From a bacterium (GTDB taxonomy: Bacteria > Patescibacteriota > CPR2 > UBA1875 > CAIMLA01): a stretch of 64,000 bases of DNA. The translations under genes were made by a program, and so were the position numbers. How positions within the stretch are numbered: position 1 is the first letter of the stretch; the number at the start of each line of letters is the position of its first letter. Below the pieces are notes generated by a model. The model made no database searches. It was given only the letters and a program-made list of their open reading frames with translations, and had not been told where the DNA came from. This document shows, one piece after another, positions 5,034-30,999 of the stretch. The stretch lies in assembly GCA_037129835.1 (NCBI GenBank), contig JBAXUE010000002.1:2334-66333 (forward strand), in the 5' to 3' direction.

Positions 5034-5153
5034 GATTGCTCCTAATTTATTTTGATTTTATAGCTAAAAAGTGTTTTAATTAACTTGTTAAGTCGTGCTT
5101 ACGACTAAACAGATTATACTTAATTTATATATAAAATGTCAAGGAAGCAAAAG

Positions 5154-6329
5154 ATGAATAAAATTGAAGAAATACTTACTCGCGGCGTTACGGATGTTAT
5201 TGTCAAAGAAGATCTTGAAAAAGTTTTGAAAAGTGACAAAAAGTTACGTATTAAACTAGGTATAGATCCCACTGGCCCAAAACTACATATTGGTCGAGCA
5301 ATTTCCTTGTGGAAGCTACGTGAATTCCAGGACTTAGGACACCAAATAGTTTTGATAATTGGAGATTTTACGGCTCAAACAGGGGACGCCTCTGATAAAA
5401 CAGCAGAAAGACAAATTCTCACACCCGAAGTAATAGCCAAAAATATGAATACATATAAGCAACAAATCGGTATGATTCTCGATATGGATAACGTAGAGAT
5501 ACGCTACAATTCAGAATGGTGGGGTAAGATGAGTGCTGGAGAGTTATTGCAAGAAGCAGCAAATTTCACCGTCAACCAACTAATCAAACGAGATAACTTT
5601 TGGCAAAGATGGGAAAATGATAAACCAATTGGTCTGCATGAAATATTGTACCCGTTGCAACAGGGTTACGACTCTGTTGCCATAAAGGCCGACGTGGAGA
5701 TCGGTGGTAATGATCAGCTGTTTAATCTGCTGGCAGGCCGGACAATGCAAAAAAAATATGGTCAAAAAGAGCAGAATGTAATCACTTTCGAGCTTTTAGA
5801 GGGTACTGACGGACGCAAAATGAGTACTAGTTATGATAATTGTATATATATCGAAGATGAGCCAAATGAAATGTTTGGGAAAATTATGTCGATCAAGGAT
5901 GAATTGATTTTGCGTTATTTGAAGTTAGTTACAGATATACCGATTGGTGAGGTTGAAATGATCAAGCTTGACTTAGAAAATGGGATGAATCCTAGGGATG
6001 CCAAAGTTATTTTAGGTAAAGCACTCGTGTCTAGATATCATGGGGTAGAAAAAGCCGAAGAAGCAAGTCAACATTTTCAGCAAGTTTTCGTTAATAAAGA
6101 AAAACCTACCGCGATTGAAGAGATTGAAATTTTGAAAAAGAAATGGCAGCTTGCAGAACTATTACATTTCGCAGGTTTGGTTTCCTCGAAAACAGACGGA
6201 CGTCGAATAATAGAACAGGGTGGTGTAAAAGTCGATGGAGCCGTGATAGGTGACAGAGAGGCTACCGTTAATTCTACAAGTGGTATGGTCATTCAGGTTG
6301 GCAAGCGAAAATTCATTAAAATAAAATAG
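5154..6329 (+). CDS. tyrS: Tyrosyl-tRNA synthetase
   Basis: Class I HIGH-like motif (P.G..LHIGR), KMSTS (a KMSKS variant) and a C-terminal S4 domain (GRRIIEQGGVKVDG). An AAGGAAG RBS precedes the ATG at 5154; the ORF-track start at 5136 has no RBS. Confidence 0.85.
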   Translation: MNKIEEILTRGVTDVIVKEDLEKVLKSDKKLRIKLGIDPTGPKLHIGRAISLWKLREFQDLGHQIVLIIGDFTAQTGDASDKTAERQILTPEVIAKNMNTYKQQIGMILDMDNVEIRYNSEWWGKMSAGELLQEAANFTVNQLIKRDNFWQRWENDKPIGLHEILYPLQQGYDSVAIKADVEIGGNDQLFNLLAGRTMQKKYGQKEQNVITFELLEGTDGRKMSTSYDNCIYIEDEPNEMFGKIMSIKDELILRYLKLVTDIPIGEVEMIKLDLENGMNPRDAKVILGKALVSRYHGVEKAEEASQHFQQVFVNKEKPTAIEEIEILKKKWQLAELLHFAGLVSSKTDGRRIIEQGGVKVDGAVIGDREATVNSTSGMVIQVGKRKFIKIK

Positions 6330-6337
6330 GTGAAAAT

Positions 6338-6499
6338 ATGAACTCAAAAAAAAGAGAACTTTTAGAACTATTGTGGTTTATTATTGCGACTCTTGGGATA
6401 TATCTAATTATTAAGCTAGAAGGTGACTTTGCCGCTTTGGTTACTATCGGTATTGCGACTGTTTTCGGTTTTTGTATAATCTATTTCAAAAAGAAATAA
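6338..6499 (+). CDS. Small (53 aa) two-TM hydrophobic protein, below the ORF-track size cutoff
   Basis: An AGGTGA RBS lies 4 nt upstream of the ATG. The product MNSKKRELLELLWFIIATLGIYLIIKLEGDFAALVTIGIATVFGFCIIYFKKK has two hydrophobic helices. Its stop TAA abuts the recG ATG (TAAATG), suggesting translational coupling. Confidence 0.4.
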   Translation: MNSKKRELLELLWFIIATLGIYLIIKLEGDFAALVTIGIATVFGFCIIYFKKK

Positions 6500-8650
6500 A
6501 TGAATTTAAAAACTCCGATTATTGAAGTAGAAGGAATTGGTGAAAGCCATTCTAGATTACTCGAAAAGCTTGGAATATGCACAATCGAGGATTTTTTATG
6601 GTATTTACCAAGGCGCTGGGATGATTTTTCGAATATTCTTCTGATAAATCAGATACGACCAGGCGAAAAAGTAAGCATTAAGGCCAAAGTAGCCAGAATA
6701 ACCAATAGAAGAGTCAAAGGAACCCTGAATCTTACTGAGGCGATAGTTGCAGATGAAAGTGGACTCCTCAAGGTAGTCTGGTTTAATCAGCCGTTTTTAA
6801 CAAAAAATATCCATGTAGATGATGAAATATTCCTCTCGGGAGTTGTAGAGTTTTCTTATGGGTCAATTCAGATGACTAGTCCGACTTATGAAAAAGTTTC
6901 TTTTGATGATAATGAAACTATCCATACAGGGAGAATCGTGCCTGTGTATCCTGAAACTGCTGGGATTACATCCAAATGGATTAGGAGTAAGATACAGCCC
7001 CTAATGAAATATATGTATAGTATCAAAGATTACCTGCCAGAAAGTGTTAAAAGCGAAGAGAATTTGATCGACCTTCCGGCTGCAATACGTCAGATGCATT
7101 TCCCCGAAAACGAATCTCAACTAGAAAAAGCAAATGAACGAATGAATTTTGATGAAATGTTTCTTCTGCAAACGGCAGTACTGAATAGTAAGAAACAGCT
7201 CAAGACAGAAAAGGCTATAGCGACTCCGATTAACGATGAATTGATCAAATCATTTGTTCAGAACCTCGGTTTTGACCTTACTGTGGCTCAAAGAAAATCA
7301 GCATGGGATATACTACAGGATTGCGCCAAGGACTCGCCGATGAATCGTTTATTGCAAGGAGATGTTGGTAGCGGGAAGACTGTAGTCGCAGCTATTGCTC
7401 TTTTAAATACCGCGATTAGCGGTTCGCAGGCGGCTTTACTTTGCCCTACAGAAATTTTGGCCAAACAGCATTACGTAAAGGTCGCTGAAATGATGAAACT
7501 CTTTGAAATAGAGTGTGCCATTTTGACTGGTGCGACTCGAAAAGAAGAACGAGACATAATATTAGCTCGACTTAAGGAAGGGGAGATAAAAATAATCATC
7601 GGGACTCACGCCCTATTAGAAAAAAATGTTGAATTTTGGAGATTAGGACTCGCTATAGTGGATGAACAGCACAGATTCGGTGTAGAGCAGAGGGGAGCAC
7701 TACGAAAAGAAAGTATTTCTAGCGGCACGATTCCTCATTTTCTAGCGATGACGGCGACACCAATACCGAGGACCTTATCTCTCACTGTTTATGGCGACCT
7801 CGACATTTCTATCATCTACGAGCTTCCACCGGGAAGACAAAAGATAGTCACCCGCATAGTTCCAGAAGAAAAGAGATTAGACGCTTATGTGTTTATAAAA
7901 AAAGAAATAAACCGTGGCGGTCAAGTTTATGTAGTCTGTACTCTAGTGGAGCAGAAGATACAAGAAGATGAGCTGGTCTCAGAAGATTTAGAACAAGAAA
8001 CTTTGAGCGATATCCAAAAAAAAATTATTATTCATCCTATTAGTAAAACAGAAAGTAGTGAAAACGAAAGAAAATCAGTTCTAGATGAATATGGTCGGTT
8101 AAGCAGAAAGGTTTTTCCAGACGTTGTCGTTGATTATATTCATGGCCAGATGAAGACAAGTGAAAAAGAGCTGGCAATGAGCAAATTTGTAAACGGGACG
8201 ACCAAAGTTTTAGTTTGCTCGTCAATTATCGAGGTTGGCCTAGATGTTCCTAGTGCTACTATTATAATAGTCGAGGATGCTGAAAGATTTGGTCTTGCTC
8301 AACTTCATCAGTTTCGTGGTCGCGTTGGCAGAGGATTAAAACAGTCTTATTGTCTACTTTTTTCTAGTAGTAAAAGCGATACCGCGAAGAAACGATTAGA
8401 AGCTTTAGTATTTACCGATAATGGCTTTAAGCTCGCCGATACCGACCTTGAAATACGTGGACCCGGGGACTTTATCGGGGGTAGACAACATGGACTTCCA
8501 GATATTAAAATGAAAAATATGATGGACATAGAACTCATTAAAAGATGTCGAGAAGCTGCGAAAAGATTTGTGGCAGGATACGAGGTTGCCGACTATCCAT
8601 TACTTGTTAAAAACATAGATAAATATATGGGAGTGTTGACTCTTGAGTAA
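6500..8650 (+). CDS. recG: ATP-dependent DNA helicase RecG
   Basis: Walker A (GDVGSGKTVVA), DEQH box (VDEQHRFG), a helicase C-terminal domain and an N-terminal wedge-domain region. Length is about 716 aa. Confidence 0.9.
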   Translation: MNLKTPIIEVEGIGESHSRLLEKLGICTIEDFLWYLPRRWDDFSNILLINQIRPGEKVSIKAKVARITNRRVKGTLNLTEAIVADESGLLKVVWFNQPFLTKNIHVDDEIFLSGVVEFSYGSIQMTSPTYEKVSFDDNETIHTGRIVPVYPETAGITSKWIRSKIQPLMKYMYSIKDYLPESVKSEENLIDLPAAIRQMHFPENESQLEKANERMNFDEMFLLQTAVLNSKKQLKTEKAIATPINDELIKSFVQNLGFDLTVAQRKSAWDILQDCAKDSPMNRLLQGDVGSGKTVVAAIALLNTAISGSQAALLCPTEILAKQHYVKVAEMMKLFEIECAILTGATRKEERDIILARLKEGEIKIIIGTHALLEKNVEFWRLGLAIVDEQHRFGVEQRGALRKESISSGTIPHFLAMTATPIPRTLSLTVYGDLDISIIYELPPGRQKIVTRIVPEEKRLDAYVFIKKEINRGGQVYVVCTLVEQKIQEDELVSEDLEQETLSDIQKKIIIHPISKTESSENERKSVLDEYGRLSRKVFPDVVVDYIHGQMKTSEKELAMSKFVNGTTKVLVCSSIIEVGLDVPSATIIIVEDAERFGLAQLHQFRGRVGRGLKQSYCLLFSSSKSDTAKKRLEALVFTDNGFKLADTDLEIRGPGDFIGGRQHGLPDIKMKNMMDIELIKRCREAAKRFVAGYEVADYPLLVKNIDKYMGVLTLE

Positions 8651-24515: not shown

Positions 24516-24543
24516 AAAAGAGTCCGAAAGGGCTCTTTTTGTA
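24516..24543 (+). terminator. Rho-independent terminator after fusA
   Basis: GAGTCC-gaaa-GGGCTC stem with a GNRA-type loop, followed by TTTTT. Confidence 0.6.
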
Positions 24544-24602
24544 TGGCTAAATTAGTATATATTTATTACAATATAACCAAAGAGTTTAATAAGGGAGATA
24601 AT

Positions 24603-25499
24603 ATGGAACCAGATTCAAGCGAAGAGAACATCGAAGTAGAAACAAATGAAGTAAGTACGGAAAGTATGGAACAACCAGCAGAAGATGTGAGGCCAGAAGA
24701 ACCTGTAGTGCGGGAAATGCCAAACCAGCCAGCACCAGTAGTAGAAGAACCGGCACCACAGCAAGCAACTCCGGCAGTACAAGCACCAAGAGCCACTGCT
24801 AGTGTTTCTGGTGATAAAGTAAGTGTGTCTGGCTATCTGGGCAGTCTGAAGAAACTTTTTACAAATCCGACTGAATTCATCAAGGAGCTTTCGGCCAAAA
24901 TTGACAACACGATAATATTTGTTTTAATAAATGTCGCATTTATGGTTTTGGCTTATTTTATAACATCTATAATTGGTTCTCTAAGCGCGGAGATAGATAT
25001 TACTGGCCAGCTTTTTTGGGAAATAATAAAAGTTCAATTTTTTACAGTTATATCAGGAATTGGTTTTCTCGCTATCGTTGCCTTGATCGCCTTTTTGTCG
25101 GGTAAAATTAGTCAAAAACAAGCTACTTTTGCAGATAATTTGGCAGTGAGCTCTGTCTTTTCACTTAATTTCTTGGCAATCGGTGTTAGCTCCTTTTTCG
25201 GACTTTTTTACATTTGGTTTCCTAGTATTGCTCAATTTGTCTTACTTTTACAAACAGTGATACCAAGCCTAGCATTGGTCTATTCAACCGTAATTTTGAT
25301 TCAAGCACTCGTCGAATTGTACCAATATTCATATCTCAGAGCAGTCTTGATATATGTTACATCAAGCATAGTAATATTGTTTATAGTGGGGCAACTATTT
25401 ACGTCTTTTGACTTATATTTTAATGTAGACTTCGGCTCAGTAGGTGGGGGCATCAGTGGAATCAGTTTAGTTAGTATGATGAACAATCTTAGTTTCTAA
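24603..25499 (+). CDS. Membrane protein with an acidic/Pro-rich N-terminal region and a C-terminal multi-TM domain (unknown function)
   Basis: An AAGGGAGA RBS precedes the ATG at 24603. The N-terminal ~90 aa are E/P/A/V-rich (EEPAPQQATPAVQAP), followed by about 5 TM helices. Confidence 0.55.
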   Translation: MEPDSSEENIEVETNEVSTESMEQPAEDVRPEEPVVREMPNQPAPVVEEPAPQQATPAVQAPRATASVSGDKVSVSGYLGSLKKLFTNPTEFIKELSAKIDNTIIFVLINVAFMVLAYFITSIIGSLSAEIDITGQLFWEIIKVQFFTVISGIGFLAIVALIAFLSGKISQKQATFADNLAVSSVFSLNFLAIGVSSFFGLFYIWFPSIAQFVLLLQTVIPSLALVYSTVILIQALVELYQYSYLRAVLIYVTSSIVILFIVGQLFTSFDLYFNVDFGSVGGGISGISLVSMMNNLSF

Positions 25500-26888: not shown

Positions 26889-27209
26889 ATGGCAGAAAAG
26901 ACTGAAAAACAAAGAATCCGAATCAAGCTAAAGGCGTATGATAACAAAATCATCGATCAGTCTACGGCTCAAATCATTGAAACAGCTGTTCGCAGTGGTG
27001 CTAAAGTAGCGGGTCCAATCCCATTACCCACCGATAGAACACCGATAACGGTTCAGAGTGCTAGTTTTGTCAACAAGAATGCAAGAGAGCAGTTTGAGAT
27101 GAGAGTTCACAAGAGACTCCTTGATATTACTGATTTTTCTGCAAAAACAGTTGATAGTCTAATGAGTTTATCCCTACCTGCCGGAGTTGATATCGAAATC
27201 AAGATGTAA
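26889..27209 (+). CDS. rpsJ: 30S ribosomal protein S10
   Basis: [11 protein letters not shown]...LD..T..IV...K..GA.V.GP.PLPT signature. Confidence 0.95.
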
Positions 27210-27310: not shown

Positions 27311-28129
27311 ATGTACCGCGCTTGTAAAATGAATGTAAATACAATTGATAAAAAAGTGATAGTCGAGATAACTAGGGTATGTAATCTCAATTGTGAACAT
27401 TGTTTGTACTCGGAGTTTTTAAATACACCAACTTTATATATGCCGATGGAGAAATATATCGAAATTATTGAGACATTTGCCTCCAAAGGATTTTCTAGAG
27501 TGGTTCTTACGGGAGGGGAGCCTACATTGCACCCTCAGCTGATTAAAATGTCGAAATACGCACGAGCTAGAGGCTTTACGGTTTCTATATGTACAAATGG
27601 TGTTATAAATATGGATGAAGAAATGCTCATAGCATTTCCTTTTGCAACCTTTACAATTAGTCTGGATTCGCATATACCCGAGGTTCACGACTTATTTCGT
27701 GGTCGCAAGGGAGCATTTAAGAAAACTATACTTTTCATAGAAAAGCTTAAACAAAAAGGTAAGAATGTTTCTATACACATAGCCCTCGGGGAGTTTAATA
27801 TAGATCGGATAGATGAAACTATTACATACGCTCTGGAGTTTAGCCGTGAGGTAGTCCTCGCTACTGTATATCTAAAGAATCAAAATGATAATATCGAATA
27901 TCAATCGAAGCTTCAAGCAGTAAAAAAACGTTATTTATTATCACAAGAAGTGATTTTGGTCGGTTTTGCGGAATATTGTGAAAACCCAGATTGTCTTTAT
28001 GGGAAAAATATTGTATTTATTAATAAAGATGGAAACAGTGTTGATTGTTATTGGAAGAAAAACGGTGGTAAGATAATATCAATAGATTCAGCATTAACTA
28101 GGAAAGTCGTAGGCATTGAAGAGAATTAG
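27311..28129 (+). CDS. Small radical SAM enzyme (272 aa)
   Basis: CX3CX2C motif (C24-N-L-N-C28-E-H-C31), a glycine-rich GGEP SAM motif at 68-71, and three further Cys near the C-terminus (C223, C228, C246) that could hold an auxiliary cluster. An AAAGGA RBS is present. Confidence 0.8.
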   Translation: MYRACKMNVNTIDKKVIVEITRVCNLNCEHCLYSEFLNTPTLYMPMEKYIEIIETFASKGFSRVVLTGGEPTLHPQLIKMSKYARARGFTVSICTNGVINMDEEMLIAFPFATFTISLDSHIPEVHDLFRGRKGAFKKTILFIEKLKQKGKNVSIHIALGEFNIDRIDETITYALEFSREVVLATVYLKNQNDNIEYQSKLQAVKKRYLLSQEVILVGFAEYCENPDCLYGKNIVFINKDGNSVDCYWKKNGGKIISIDSALTRKVVGIEEN

Positions 28130-29201
28130 CGATAAATATCAAATATTTGATAAGAATGAGGTTGAGATACTAGCAGAACAGCTAGAATCTGGGAAATTGT
28201 CCGGTACCAGTGTAGCTATTCAAGATTATGAAGATGATTTGTCTCAATTCTTTGATGCAAAGTTTGCCGTTGCTGTATCGTCTGGTACTGCCGCTATTCA
28301 AGTTGCACTATTTTCGCTCGGGCTTTCGAAAGGGGATAAAGTCATGTTAACACCGACTTGTCCAATGATGACAGTGTATCCGATAATTTTTGCAGGTTTA
28401 GTGCCGGTATTTGTTGATACTGAAGCAGATTCATTCGGTTTTGATATTGAAGATGTGGTTAAAAAGTTTGATTCTAAAGTAAGGGCGGTTATAGATATCC
28501 CAATGTGGGGTTATCCAATGGACGTGAAGAAGCGTCAGGAATTTTGTCATAGTCATGACTTGTTATATATCTTAGACTTAGCGCAAGCTCATGGCAGCAA
28601 ATTCGGAGGCAAATATCTATCAAAATATTGTGACGTCGCTTGCTTTAGCACGCACGATAGAAAGATACTTTCCACGGGGGAGGGTGGATTTATATTAACT
28701 GACGATAGGCAGACTGCTGAATCGGCAAAGTCTTTCACTCAATTTGGTTTCATGAAAGGTGTTGATTTCGGGTTAAATTATAAATTGGGTGCGTTGCAAG
28801 CAACCATAGGAAAAAACAGATTGAAACAGGTAAATAGTCAATTAGTAAAACGTAAAGAAAATTCAGATTTACTAAGATCCCTTATTAAAAATAATTCAGT
28901 TAGTGAATTTAAGATAACAGAAAGGGGAACTGCCAACTATTATACATATTTACTTAGTTTAAGGTTTAAGGATAATCTGGGTTTTATCAAATATCTTGAA
29001 GAGAAAGGTATCCCATCAGATATTACGAGGTATTCATATCTTCCTTTGTATGAATTGCCAGCATTTTTAGAATATGGGACGGTTTGTGCAAATGCCGAAC
29101 TCTTATCAAAAACGATAACTACCATCCCGGTTCACCCGGGGATTACAGTGGATGATATCCAATATATAGCAGAGTGTATTAATTTATATGAGGAGAGATA
29201 A
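28116..29201 (+). CDS. DegT/DnrJ/EryC1/StrS-family PLP-dependent aminotransferase
   Basis: Family motifs AVAVSSGTAAIQVAL, GDKVMLTPT, PVFVD, ILDLAQAHG, and FSTHDRK-ILSTGEGG with the catalytic Lys in the canonical position. TTG start overlapping the upstream gene by 14 nt. Confidence 0.8.
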   Translation: MKRISDKYQIFDKNEVEILAEQLESGKLSGTSVAIQDYEDDLSQFFDAKFAVAVSSGTAAIQVALFSLGLSKGDKVMLTPTCPMMTVYPIIFAGLVPVFVDTEADSFGFDIEDVVKKFDSKVRAVIDIPMWGYPMDVKKRQEFCHSHDLLYILDLAQAHGSKFGGKYLSKYCDVACFSTHDRKILSTGEGGFILTDDRQTAESAKSFTQFGFMKGVDFGLNYKLGALQATIGKNRLKQVNSQLVKRKENSDLLRSLIKNNSVSEFKITERGTANYYTYLLSLRFKDNLGFIKYLEEKGIPSDITRYSYLPLYELPAFLEYGTVCANAELLSKTITTIPVHPGITVDDIQYIAECINLYEER

Positions 29202-29659
29202 TGGAGAAACATTTTACAGCTTCGGCTTTAGTATTTAATTCGGCTGGACATATATTACTATTAAAACATAAAAAGTTAGGCGTTTGGCTTGACCCGGGTG
29301 GGCATATTGAATCTGACGAAACGCCAGATGACGCCATAGTACGAGAAGTAAAGGAAGAAACAGGGCTTGATGTAGAGATAATTTCTGAAATCGACACCAA
29401 CCTTTCTGACCCAATCAATGATATAACTCCGCTAGCAAAACCATATACTATTCTTTCCGAACTGATTAGTAAGGGTGATGAATCTCATTATCATATAGAC
29501 TTATTCTATATTTGTAAGATAGTAGGTGGTGAAACATTGTCTGCAGGTGAAGGGGAGTCAGTAGAAGTAGGGTTTTTCTCTGAAAAAGAGATTGGGGAAC
29601 TCGAATTATTCCCTAATTTTAGAAAACTGCTCGAGAAAGTATTTTTAGAACGCGGATAG
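29201..29659 (+). CDS. Nudix hydrolase
   Basis: Nudix box GGHIESDETPDDAIVREVKEETGL (GX5EX7REUXEEXGU). The ATG shares an A with the aminotransferase stop (TAATG). A GGAGAG RBS is present. Confidence 0.8.
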   Translation: MEKHFTASALVFNSAGHILLLKHKKLGVWLDPGGHIESDETPDDAIVREVKEETGLDVEIISEIDTNLSDPINDITPLAKPYTILSELISKGDESHYHIDLFYICKIVGGETLSAGEGESVEVGFFSEKEIGELELFPNFRKLLEKVFLERG

Positions 29660-29698
29660 TTTTTAATAAGTGTGATTCGCATCAAAGTTATTGTTAAT

Positions 29699-29730
29699 AA
29701 GCGCTCTGCATAGAGCGTTTATTATTTTTG
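29699..29730 (+). terminator. Hairpin plus T-run terminator after the Nudix gene
   Basis: CGCTCT-gcat-AGAGCG stem followed by TTTATTATTTTT. Confidence 0.5.
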
Positions 29731-29744
29731 TATCTCAGATAACG

Positions 29745-29773
29745 TTGACATATCTTGTTTCTGGTAGTAAAAT
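29745..29773 (+). promoter_or_regulatory. Consensus sigma70 promoter TTGACA-N17-TAAAAT driving the GC-rich small ORF
   Basis: TTGACA at 29745-29750, an exactly 17-nt spacer, and TAAAAT at 29768-29773. A GGAGGG RBS follows about 35 nt downstream. Confidence 0.55.
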
Positions 29774-29813
29774 TACCAAGTTTTGTACCCTAGTCCCGTA
29801 GGAGGGATGCAAC

Positions 29814-30134
29814 ATGGCAAGACCACGAAAGCGGCTTGACCCAACGTTGGCTGGCAATCTGATATTCTCTATTGCCGGTATCTCCGATGATCACAACTTG
29901 GTGGAAATCGCTGACATCGTCAAAGAAGAGATCGGATTGTGGCAAGCTTGCATCGATCACCCCGAAAGGCGCAACTACCGACTCCATGTAGTCGGCGGCT
30001 CGGACCAGAAACTCCCAGATTTCGTCCTTGAGCACAAAGATGAGACATATACGTCTGCAGTTGCAGACGTATGGGACCTCGACGTAGAGGTTCTGGACGA
30101 AGATTCTCACCTTCGGGTGACCTGTCGTCTCTGA
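29814..30134 (+). CDS. 106-aa hypothetical protein in a compositionally foreign (about 50% GC) island
   Basis: A GGAGGG RBS lies 5 nt before the ATG, with its own promoter upstream. The acidic product has no recognisable motif. Overlapping antisense ORFs exist because of the high GC. Confidence 0.4.
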   Translation: MARPRKRLDPTLAGNLIFSIAGISDDHNLVEIADIVKEEIGLWQACIDHPERRNYRLHVVGGSDQKLPDFVLEHKDETYTSAVADVWDLDVEVLDEDSHLRVTCRL

Positions 30135-30205
30135 ACGAGAAGTAGGTACAAAAGGGTGTCGTCGCTAACAAGCGGCGGCACCCAGTGTCTTTTCTTGAAA
30201 TATCG

Positions 30206-30234
30206 TTGACAAAAGACTATATATTTACTATACT
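30206..30234 (+). promoter_or_regulatory. Consensus sigma70 promoter TTGACA-N17-TATACT for the rplC operon
   Basis: TTGACA at 30206-30211, a 17-nt spacer, and TATACT at 30229-30234. Confidence 0.55.
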
Positions 30235-30321
30235 TATTCATGCGTAAAAAAATACGTTAAACCGTCGAGGGATGGGCAAGTCCAAAGGATACTGTCTATC
30301 TGTCGAAATATATTTTGTTGA

Positions 30322-30369
30322 TTAAAATCCGCCTATGCAAAAAGCTACGGACGGACAAGAAGGCGAACA
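30322..30369 (+). promoter_or_regulatory. Leader segment upstream of rplC that duplicates the tuf leader
   Basis: AAAATCCGCCTATGCAAAAAGCTACGGACGGACAAGAAGGCGAACAATG versus the tuf leader. The shared core is ATCCGCCTAYG..GC.ACGGACGGACAAGAAGG.GA. Confidence 0.45.
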
Positions 30370-30999
30370 ATGAAGGCATTAATAGGTAAGAAAGTTGGAA
30401 TGACCCACATCTTTGATGAAAAGGGTAATGTAGTTCCTGTGACCGTCGTACAGGCGGGACCTTGTACTGTTGTTCAAGTTAAAACTGTAGAAATTGATGG
30501 CTATTCTGCCGTTCAGCTCGGTTTTGGCTTAAATAAAAGAATTAATAAACCGCTTGCCGGGCATGTAAAAGATTCAGGAGCAGTACCACGTACTTTGCGA
30601 GAATTTGAGATGACTGAGGATATCGCAAGCGAAAACGAAGAAACACCTTCTGCTATAAAAGTTGGTGATACATTTGACGTTTCTGTTTTCAGCGAAGGGG
30701 ATCAGCTCCAAGTAACTGGTACTTCCAAGGGTAAAGGATTTGCAGGTACTATAAAGCGTCATAATTTTACAACTGGTCCAAAGACACACGGATCACATAA
30801 TTATCGACAACCAGGCTCTATAGGTTCTGGCTATCCACAGCACGTCATGAAAGGCAAAAAGATGGCGGGTCAGATGGGCGCTGAACAAGTAAGCGTCAAA
30901 AACTTAAAAATTGTTAAAATTGATTTAGCCAACAATACCGTTGCGATAAAGGGTGCAGTACCCGGCCCTCGTAAAGGTTTAGTGATTTTGAGAGGTTAA
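30370..30999 (+). CDS. rplC: 50S ribosomal protein L3
   Basis: MKALIGKKVGMTHIFDEKG... canonical L3. Confidence 0.95.
   Translation: MKALIGKKVGMTHIFDEKGNVVPVTVVQAGPCTVVQVKTVEIDGYSAVQLGFGLNKRINKPLAGHVKDSGAVPRTLREFEMTEDIASENEETPSAIKVGDTFDVSVFSEGDQLQVTGTSKGKGFAGTIKRHNFTTGPKTHGSHNYRQPGSIGSGYPQHVMKGKKMAGQMGAEQVSVKNLKIVKIDLANNTVAIKGAVPGPRKGLVILRG

Follow-up and report, generated by a model that had tools for sequence, protein, structure and literature searches.

The question raised by this locus is how a short, GC-rich segment carrying an orphan gene came to lie directly in front of rplC in an otherwise AT-rich bacterial genome. The stretch of DNA that was analysed, hereafter the window, comprises 64,000 nucleotides (nt) of contig JBAXUE010000002.1 (assembly GCA_037129835.1). 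At ~39% GC, it holds the str/S10 cluster of ribosomal genes from an uncultured bacterium of Patescibacteria/Saccharibacteria-like affiliation, the nearest GTDB genomes carrying the labels Patescibacteria group or Candidatus Saccharibacteria. An initial annotation, made from the letters of the DNA and a list of its open reading frames (ORFs), described the segment between 29745 and 30190 as a GC-rich island with its own promoter and a 106-amino acid (aa) orphan ORF, and took it to be a recent foreign arrival. The analysis described here leads to a different answer: the island is probably a small gene, old, insulated and under selection, that occupies a variable slot between rpsJ and rplC. It would form a self-contained single-gene unit, in which a near-consensus sigma-70 promoter and a short, conserved leader precede an ORF of 106 codons and an intrinsic terminator closes the unit.

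The compositional anomaly itself is clear. Between 29810 and 30185 the GC content is 0.524, compared with a mean of 0.392 (standard deviation (sd) 0.036) for all 376-nt windows of the 64 kb (z = 3.7), and this segment is the GC maximum of the window, the runner-up being a value of 0.497 at the tRNA cluster. In windows of 200 nt, GC stays at 0.525-0.53 across 29800-30099 and lies at 0.33-0.43 in the flanks. By codon position, the ORF has GC1/2/3 values of 0.64/0.35/0.55, with a first-position G of 0.40. GC1 and GC2 match those of host genes and only the third position (GC3) deviates (0.55 versus ~0.30); across 73 ORFs of the window, mean GC3 is 0.318 (sd 0.047), which places the gene at z ~ +5. 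The GC-rich island and its atypical composition, proposed with the proviso that a properly computed profile might show no significant deviation, were therefore upheld by both the GC profile and the codon-position values.

The ORF (29814..30134, + strand) encodes a 106-aa soluble protein, here designated family A, and codon-position GC, homologues and substitution patterns all indicate that it is a real + strand protein gene under purifying selection. When 1.84 billion representative proteins were scanned exhaustively with HMMER, two true relatives were returned, and a subsequent profile search yielded another two, giving four homologues at 46-60% identity: P0002 (58%), P0003 (~47%), P0005 (56%) and P0006 (60%). 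For P0003 the true start, judged by the conserved ribosome-binding site, is 24 nt upstream of the annotated start. A further protein from the HMMER scan, P0004, was set aside as a low-complexity repeat protein. A word-indexed search of 5.8 billion proteins recovered only the 106-aa protein itself, and no nucleotide homologue of the island was present in 160 loci around rplC drawn from genome and metagenome collections. Nine further contigs carry the gene (ten are on record), but their DNA is identical save for one base in one contig and they consequently yield no covariation data. Among the five family-A sequences, the proportion of nonsynonymous differences (pN) is 0.15-0.41, compared with 0.59-0.81 for synonymous differences (pS), and dN/dS is 0.09-0.28 where computable; synonymous sites are saturated. 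The 106-aa ORF of the initial annotation can thus be regarded as a genuine gene. ORFs open on both strands, also remarked upon there, are present as well, in the form of an antisense 106-aa ORF at 29790-30110 and an 83-aa ORF. An overlapping antisense gene was considered and rejected, the mirror frame being open in only three of the five family members; its interruption in the other two marks it as a by-product of G/C-ending codon usage.

Upstream of the gene lies a sigma-70-type promoter, TTGACA-N17-TAAAAT (29745..29773, + strand), which matches 11 of 12 positions. Sites of at least 11/12 number four on the + strand of the 64-kb window, where block shuffles give 1.5 +/- 1.2, and each of the four is found upstream of a gene. 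In four homologous loci (including L170, L174 and L176), the -35 element is retained, as is most of the -10 element. Between promoter and gene is a conserved block of the 5' untranslated region (5'UTR), TTGTACC..GTCCCGTAGGAGGGATGCAAC followed by ATG (29780..29813, + strand), which contains the Shine-Dalgarno sequence AGGAGGG (29800-29806) ahead of the ATG at 29814. In the five-locus alignment the columns of this block are near-invariant, despite the saturation of synonymous sites within the ORF. Both the promoter and the GGAGGG ribosome-binding site had been read correctly in the initial annotation. Within the block, RNAalifold places a small hairpin, GUCCC-GUAGGA-GGGAU (29793..29808, + strand), over the 3' half of the Shine-Dalgarno sequence. 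Across the five sequences one of its five pairs is kept through a two-sided change (UA to CG, in two of five) and two through one-sided changes, weak but consistent evidence that the hairpin is a candidate translational damper.

Downstream, a terminator scan identified an intrinsic terminator that is absent from the initial annotation, with a 13-bp stem containing nine G-C pairs and a T-rich tail (30154..30193, hairpin 30154-30183, + strand). A GC-rich hairpin occupies the same place in every homologous locus, although its sequence has diverged. Because of this strong terminator, the unit, bounded by its own promoter at 29745 and by the terminator at 30154, appears to be monocistronic. The same scan found a second intrinsic terminator (29695..29724, + strand), with a 13-bp stem and a T-run, 3' of the neighbouring upstream genes, a cassette considered below. 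This second element would close the cassette and shield the 106-aa unit from read-through, and the terminators on either side would together insulate the unit from neighbouring genes.

GC-rich sequence in an AT-rich genome is also a property of structural RNAs, and the unit could be read as a structured non-coding RNA gene on which the ORFs of both strands are accidental. Its 416 nt fold at z = -5.74, GNRA-like and UUCG loops are present and its 5' and 3' ends are able to pair. Despite this, such a gene is extremely improbable. Rfam returned nothing for it, even at E up to 10, and over 29600-30400 no match reached gathering thresholds, the best E-value matches lying far below gathering scores. 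The ORF shows strong three-base periodicity, and its amino acids are kept while synonymous sites are saturated. Folded alone, it reaches z = -3.0, a value that control coding segments also cover (mean -0.6, sd 1.3, minimum -3.1). The extra fold stability of the whole unit stems from the terminator and the end-to-end helix, and the latter is neither conserved nor significant. The structured-RNA candidate was rejected on the lack of an Rfam match, the codon periodicity, the protein conservation and the folding of the ORF within the control range. The closing helix, GUUUUGUACC / GGUACAAAA, was also discarded as an mRNA-stabilising or terminal-inverted-repeat-like element, being unconserved in L170, L176 and L177 and scoring z -0.5 against shuffles; a weak analogue, GAACGUCGA / UCGACGUUC, occurs in L180 and L182 (p 0.03-0.07). 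A hairpin at the S-A-V-A-D codons inside the ORF was likewise rejected, since the amino acids dictate four of its five pairs and the one free pair, complementary in three of three sequences, is too little evidence.

If the unit is a protein gene, how long has it been there? All four homologues adjoin rplC, on its 5' side, or rpsJ, on its 3' side. In L170 the order is rpsJ, 120 nt, the family-A gene and rplC. In L176 and L177 the gene directly follows rpsJ, and both contigs stop short of rplC. In L174, which has no adjacent rpsJ, the order is an HD-domain gene, the family-A gene, a 72-aa ORF and rplC. Between the window and L170, L176 and L177, DNA identity is 59-62% for the ORF and 76-77% for S10, and the divergence of family A seems broadly parallel to that of S10 and L3. 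These distances fit long residence combined with replacement in some lineages, and the gene is more plausibly a long-standing occupant of the rpsJ-rplC gap than a recent import. The recent foreign origin favoured by the initial annotation is not supported, in view of the four same-site homologues, the saturated synonymous sites and the divergence that parallels S10 and L3. Homology to a native conserved gene, which that annotation had raised as the finding that would speak against a foreign source, is indeed seen here, although the gene is conserved in only part of the lineage.

A recent horizontal acquisition from a donor of ~50-55% GC, alone or together with the cassette and still undrifted towards host composition, nevertheless has points in its favour. 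GC3 stands ~5 sd above that of the window's genes, a promoter and a terminator belong to the unit itself, and no family-A gene is present in L180 (S10 96%, L3 102/117 aa), the closest relative found. This explanation is considered unlikely, because four other lineages have homologues at this site; their synonymous divergence is saturated, and their distances follow those of S10 and L3. In addition, GC3 is raised in all members of the family and tracks the host, at 0.55-0.58 in two low-GC hosts (ribosomal genes 0.22-0.36) and 0.63-0.70 in hosts of higher GC (rpsJ 0.45-0.53). No match was found among viral contigs (IMG/VR).

The cassette also argues against a joint arrival. It lies outside the 106-aa unit (27311..29659, + strand) and consists of three + strand genes identified by Pfam matches: a radical-SAM gene (27311-28129), the first after the rpsJ terminator, a DegT-type aminotransferase gene (28116-29201) and a Nudix gene (29201-29659). 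Its GC3 of 0.28-0.31 is host-like, no homologue of it was found in ~170 related rplC or rpsJ loci, and the other family-A loci lack it, the gene directly following rpsJ without any cassette in L170, L176 and L177. From these observations it is the cassette that is the newcomer, apparently inserted between the rpsJ terminator and the family-A promoter in this genome only. The proposal that the island came with the cassette is therefore not sustained, and the alternative offered alongside it, a separate unit, agrees better with an insulated gene beside a host-like cassette. The cassette, with its DegT/DnrJ-type pyridoxal phosphate (PLP) aminotransferase, may be a genome-specific module for sugar-nucleotide or cofactor modification.

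The rpsJ-rplC spacer measures 637-5264 nt in the nearest relatives of this genome, compared with <150 nt in most bacteria. The clade considered, defined by at least 89% S10 identity, contains the window, L180, L178, L182-L184, L010, L085, L090, L170, L176 and L177. Family A (~106 aa) is present in the window, L170, L176 and L177, and also in L174; it is absent at the site in L180, L010, L085 and L090. A second family, B (~120 aa), is found in L183, L184, L085 and L182 (BLASTP E 8e-13 to 3e-3), and a profile comparison of families A and B was not significant (probability 4.8%). L090 and L010 carry unrelated ORFs, one and three, respectively. In L180 the slot is filled by a mosaic gene of 122 aa with a promoter, 5'UTR and 3' flank of family-B type, the N-terminal 61 residues of which are family-A-like (hhalign E 4e-5, probability 69%). 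When homology of family A to other slot ORFs was considered, only this N-terminal half proved credible. Each occupant has its own near-consensus promoter and GC-rich terminator, and downstream of each the rplC promoter and leader are conserved. In the window this downstream border, the rplC promoter with its structured leader, spans 30206..30369 (+ strand), with the promoter TTGACA-N17-TATACT at 30206-30234 (+ strand) and rplC starting at 30370.

The comparison with L180 shows that replacement occurs at the site. DNA identity with the window is 91% for tuf, 85% for rpsJ, 94% for the rplC promoter and leader and 82% for rplC, yet the slot gene of L180 cannot be aligned with that of the window, and L180 is without the cassette. 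On these grounds the rpsJ-rplC gap is judged likely to be a hypervariable accessory slot within the clade. A stronger version of this proposal makes the gap a dedicated diversity locus, in which deeply diverged alleles of small proteins (families A and B, mosaics and others) are swapped by recombination under balancing or diversifying selection, GC3 is raised by biased gene conversion, and the proteins modulate or protect translation or act as immunity factors. This version is regarded as improbable. If true, strain-specific modulators or protectors of translation, or immunity factors for the phage, host or inter-strain conflicts of these episymbionts, would be placed between the two most strongly expressed operons.

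Several further features of the slot were observed. Units of family-B type share a 5'UTR motif, GAACGTCGACAA(n)AAAAGGGG, and a 3' motif, TTCGACGT(T/C), followed by a hairpin, GGACCGATTACCTACGGGTA.TCGGTCC. These sites are located in L180 at 1100-1150 and 1520-1580, in L182 at 6420-6470 and 6837-6900, in L085 at 5390-5401 and 5770-5785 and at equivalent positions in L183/L184. The two short motifs are mutual inverted repeats. The ORFs between them are only 24-31% identical, and that of L180 differs in its N-terminal half; the motifs may mark recombination borders or pair the ends of the mRNA (5'/3' duplex p 0.03-0.07). In two more distantly related loci, L012 (850-2250) and L015 (2259-2560), at 34% and 43% GC, runs of GC-rich small orphan ORFs lie directly after the rpsJ terminator and have similar 5'UTRs (..ACGGTAGGAA..GGG.GG..ATG). 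Host-like genes precede rplC in both, with an ABC transporter in L012 and an ORF of 249-263 aa in each. Contigs that end a few hundred bases past rpsJ were also seen (L178 6321-7001, L185 5321-5480 and the end of L184); such ends are typical of assembly where co-occurring strains differ and fit slot polymorphism within populations. The rplC leader, ~130 nt long, contains a long hairpin, UCGAGGGAUGGGCAAGUCC...GGAUACUGUCUAUCUGUCGA, in which four of 16 pairs are kept through two-sided changes across five loci, and it has no Rfam match. The promoter and leader lie at 30206-30369 in the window, 5878-6003 in L010, 5872-6003 in L085, 4875-5003 in L090, 1796-1924 in L170 and 1588-1758 in L180. This leader is a candidate autoregulatory leader of the L3/L4 operon in a clade that transcribes rpsJ with tuf rather than with rplC.

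The raised GC3 is shared by all occupants of the slot. All 15 slot ORFs have GC3 values of 0.45-0.75, and in each of the 12 with an adjacent rpsJ the value exceeds that of the local rpsJ. Since the excess is common to every occupant, it is a trait of the slot or its gene pool and not of a recent donor; since the offset of ~+0.1 to +0.3 has survived full synonymous turnover, it is maintained and not a fading donor signature. Relative to synonymous-codon shuffles, the mRNA of family A folds at z = -1.0 to -3.5 (mean -2.2) and that of other slot ORFs at z -1.1 to -2.8, compared with a mean of -0.62 for 41 control segments from host genes (Mann-Whitney p = 0.004 for family A and 0.009 for the other slot ORFs). 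Recombination has been associated with GC3 in bacteria (Lassalle et al. 2015, PMC4450053). The excess fits GC-biased gene conversion, selection for well-folded mRNA, or both.

What the product might do was approached through its sequence and predicted fold. The protein has an isoelectric point (pI) of 4.82 and a grand average of hydropathy (GRAVY) of -0.32, with no signal peptide or membrane segment; its description as acidic was accordingly accurate. The first ~10 residues are Arg/Lys-rich in all members and are modelled as disordered. AlphaFold2, given the five-sequence alignment, returned a model with a mean predicted local distance difference test (pLDDT) of 75.8 and a predicted template modelling score (pTM) of 0.69, in the order beta(16-23), alpha(29-45), beta(55-60), beta(69-74), beta(86-95), beta(100-105); from a single sequence it was uninformative (pLDDT 48). 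The predicted architecture is a beta-alpha-beta4 domain preceded by the disordered tail of Arg/Lys-rich sequence at the N-terminus. The invariant residues are concentrated in two motifs, H49-x-E51-R52-x-N54-Y55 and F70-V-L-E-H-K75...A82-V-A-D-V-W87, which correspond to the conserved strings HPER.NY and FVLEHKDE.Y..AVADVW.

One possible function is suggested by the neighbourhood. A lineage-specific ribosome-associated or biogenesis protein, placed beside rplC for co-regulation and contacting rRNA through its basic tail, would account for a position between rpsJ and rplC that is conserved in five lineages and for the disordered, Arg/Lys-rich N-terminus of all members. Such a role appears doubtful. 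The gene has its own promoter and is separated by terminators from both ribosomal operons. No family-A member matches a ribosomal protein in Pfam or NCBIfam, and the only such match in PDB is to RPL38 (E 0.73). In L180, L010, L085, L090 and L182-L184 other genes take its place, as would not be expected of a core component of translation; since close relatives lack the gene, family A is not considered to be one.

The preferred model remains that of an old, insulated accessory gene in a variable slot. Transcription of the unit would be strong and constitutive, and the hairpin, in which half of the Shine-Dalgarno sequence is paired, may temper translation. Partner binding by the product, through its basic disordered tail and its compact, acidic alpha/beta domain, would serve an accessory function that varies among strains and is of conflict or immunity type rather than part of core translation; such a function fits the hypervariability of the slot. 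Frequent recombination at the slot with GC-biased gene conversion, selection on mRNA folding, or both may have raised its GC3. A test of toxin-antitoxin or toxin-immunity organisation found no linked partner in the unit; only L174 has a second ORF. This ORF (L174 1679-1897), GC-rich and 72 aa long, begins 10 nt after the family-A gene and precedes the terminator, an arrangement seen in no other family-A member, and it contains two Cys pairs (CSCG ... CQCG) reminiscent of a zinc ribbon.

A number of observations weigh against this model. The pI of family-A members spans 4.8 to 9.0, so that net acidity is not conserved, and the value of 8.96 for the L174 homologue makes an acidic binder or mimic less likely. 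Both the structure model and the covariation in the Shine-Dalgarno hairpin draw on a shallow alignment of the five known members. Searches of Pfam, PHROGs, NCBIfam, PADLOC and PDB sequences returned no match, as would be expected from the initial annotation of a protein with no recognisable motif, and the PDB and BFVD fold libraries contained none either (Foldseek E <=0.001). In Pfam, NCBIfam and PADLOC, none of the five members matches antitoxin, immunity or defence families. The flanks of the unit contain no partner gene, mobility gene or repeat that would tie it to a conflict system. The patchy distribution may reflect ancestral presence with replacements or lateral spread, which three to four host markers do not separate. 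Gene conversion is a putative source of the GC3 excess, and rpsJ and rplC beside the slot show little or none.

The wider neighbourhood is that of the str/S10 cluster. The gene order leading to the slot is rpoB, rpoC, rpsL, rpsG, fusA, a Yip1-domain gene, tuf and rpsJ (26889-27209), and the genes within 6 kb of the unit are those for ribosomal proteins, EF-Tu, EF-G, the Yip1-domain protein and the cassette. No integrase or transposase is found among them, the nearest tRNA is 19 kb distant and the only flanking repeat detected around the unit, a single 9-10-nt inverted pair, is not significant. Integron gene cassettes are usually promoterless. The unit has its own promoter, the hairpin at its 3' end has the form of an intrinsic terminator, T-run included, and no integron integrase occurs among the neighbouring genes, all of which set it apart from such cassettes. 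The gap between fusA and tuf is an apparent second variable slot, containing the Yip1-domain membrane protein in the window (24543-25499), one to three small orphan ORFs in L178 (4133-4375), L182 (4058-4611) and L185 (3233-3603), and 1.9 kb with no called gene in L184 (1880-3808). Other near-perfect sigma-70 matches in the window lie at 5142 (-), 48667 (+) and 52896 (+); one matches at 12/12 and two at 11/12, and all are intergenic, 5' of genes or of the tRNA cluster (48737). Their placement suggests that canonical -35/-10 promoters are in use in the source organism.

These results correct the view of the locus, in that the GC-rich orphan is a conserved, lineage-restricted gene and the cassette beside it the newcomer. 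The str/S10 cluster has one of the most conserved gene orders in bacteria, yet it appears to house a slot for differing, independently transcribed small genes. The persistent GC3 offset offers a natural test case, in reduced and AT-biased genomes, for distinguishing GC-biased gene conversion from mRNA-fold selection, and family A would be a suitable subject for functional work in those few Saccharibacteria that can be manipulated genetically. The literature on Saccharibacteria was searched for a gene or slot lying between rpsJ and rplC, and nothing relevant came to light.

Comparison with known systems places the unit among familiar kinds of element. Phage morons are autonomous units of promoter, ORF and terminator, of deviant composition, that lie between conserved genes. 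Like them, the unit has a near-consensus promoter, one small ORF, a terminator and an odd composition, with cargo that differs from genome to genome; unlike them, it resides in the str/S10 cluster of a bacterial chromosome, searches of IMG/VR and PHROGs for relatives were empty and it is old at its site. A second parallel is provided by accessory hotspots between core genes, among them hotspots of integration or defence and the loci for capsule or O-antigen. The slot shares with these its conserved borders (the rpsJ terminator on one side and, at 94% identity, the rplC promoter and leader on the other), contents that are non-homologous or barely homologous and one mosaic allele, but its cargo is limited to one or a few ORFs of ~100-170 codons, with no integrase, tRNA, repeats or PADLOC match. 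The GC3 pattern resembles that of GC-biased gene conversion (PMC4450053), being raised at a locus of allele replacement, in any family and against the AT bias of the host, although the flanking rpsJ and rplC show little excess, and selection on mRNA folding is an alternative. Finally, family A is similar to ORFan small-protein families in having only five sequence clusters in 5.8 + 1.84 billion proteins and no domain or fold match. Unlike many orphans, it is well supported as a coding gene, since it is under purifying selection, its regulatory sequence is conserved and its synteny fixed. Judged from these comparisons, family A appears to be a previously undescribed, lineage-restricted small-protein family of a familiar kind, that of the restricted small gene in a variable hotspot.

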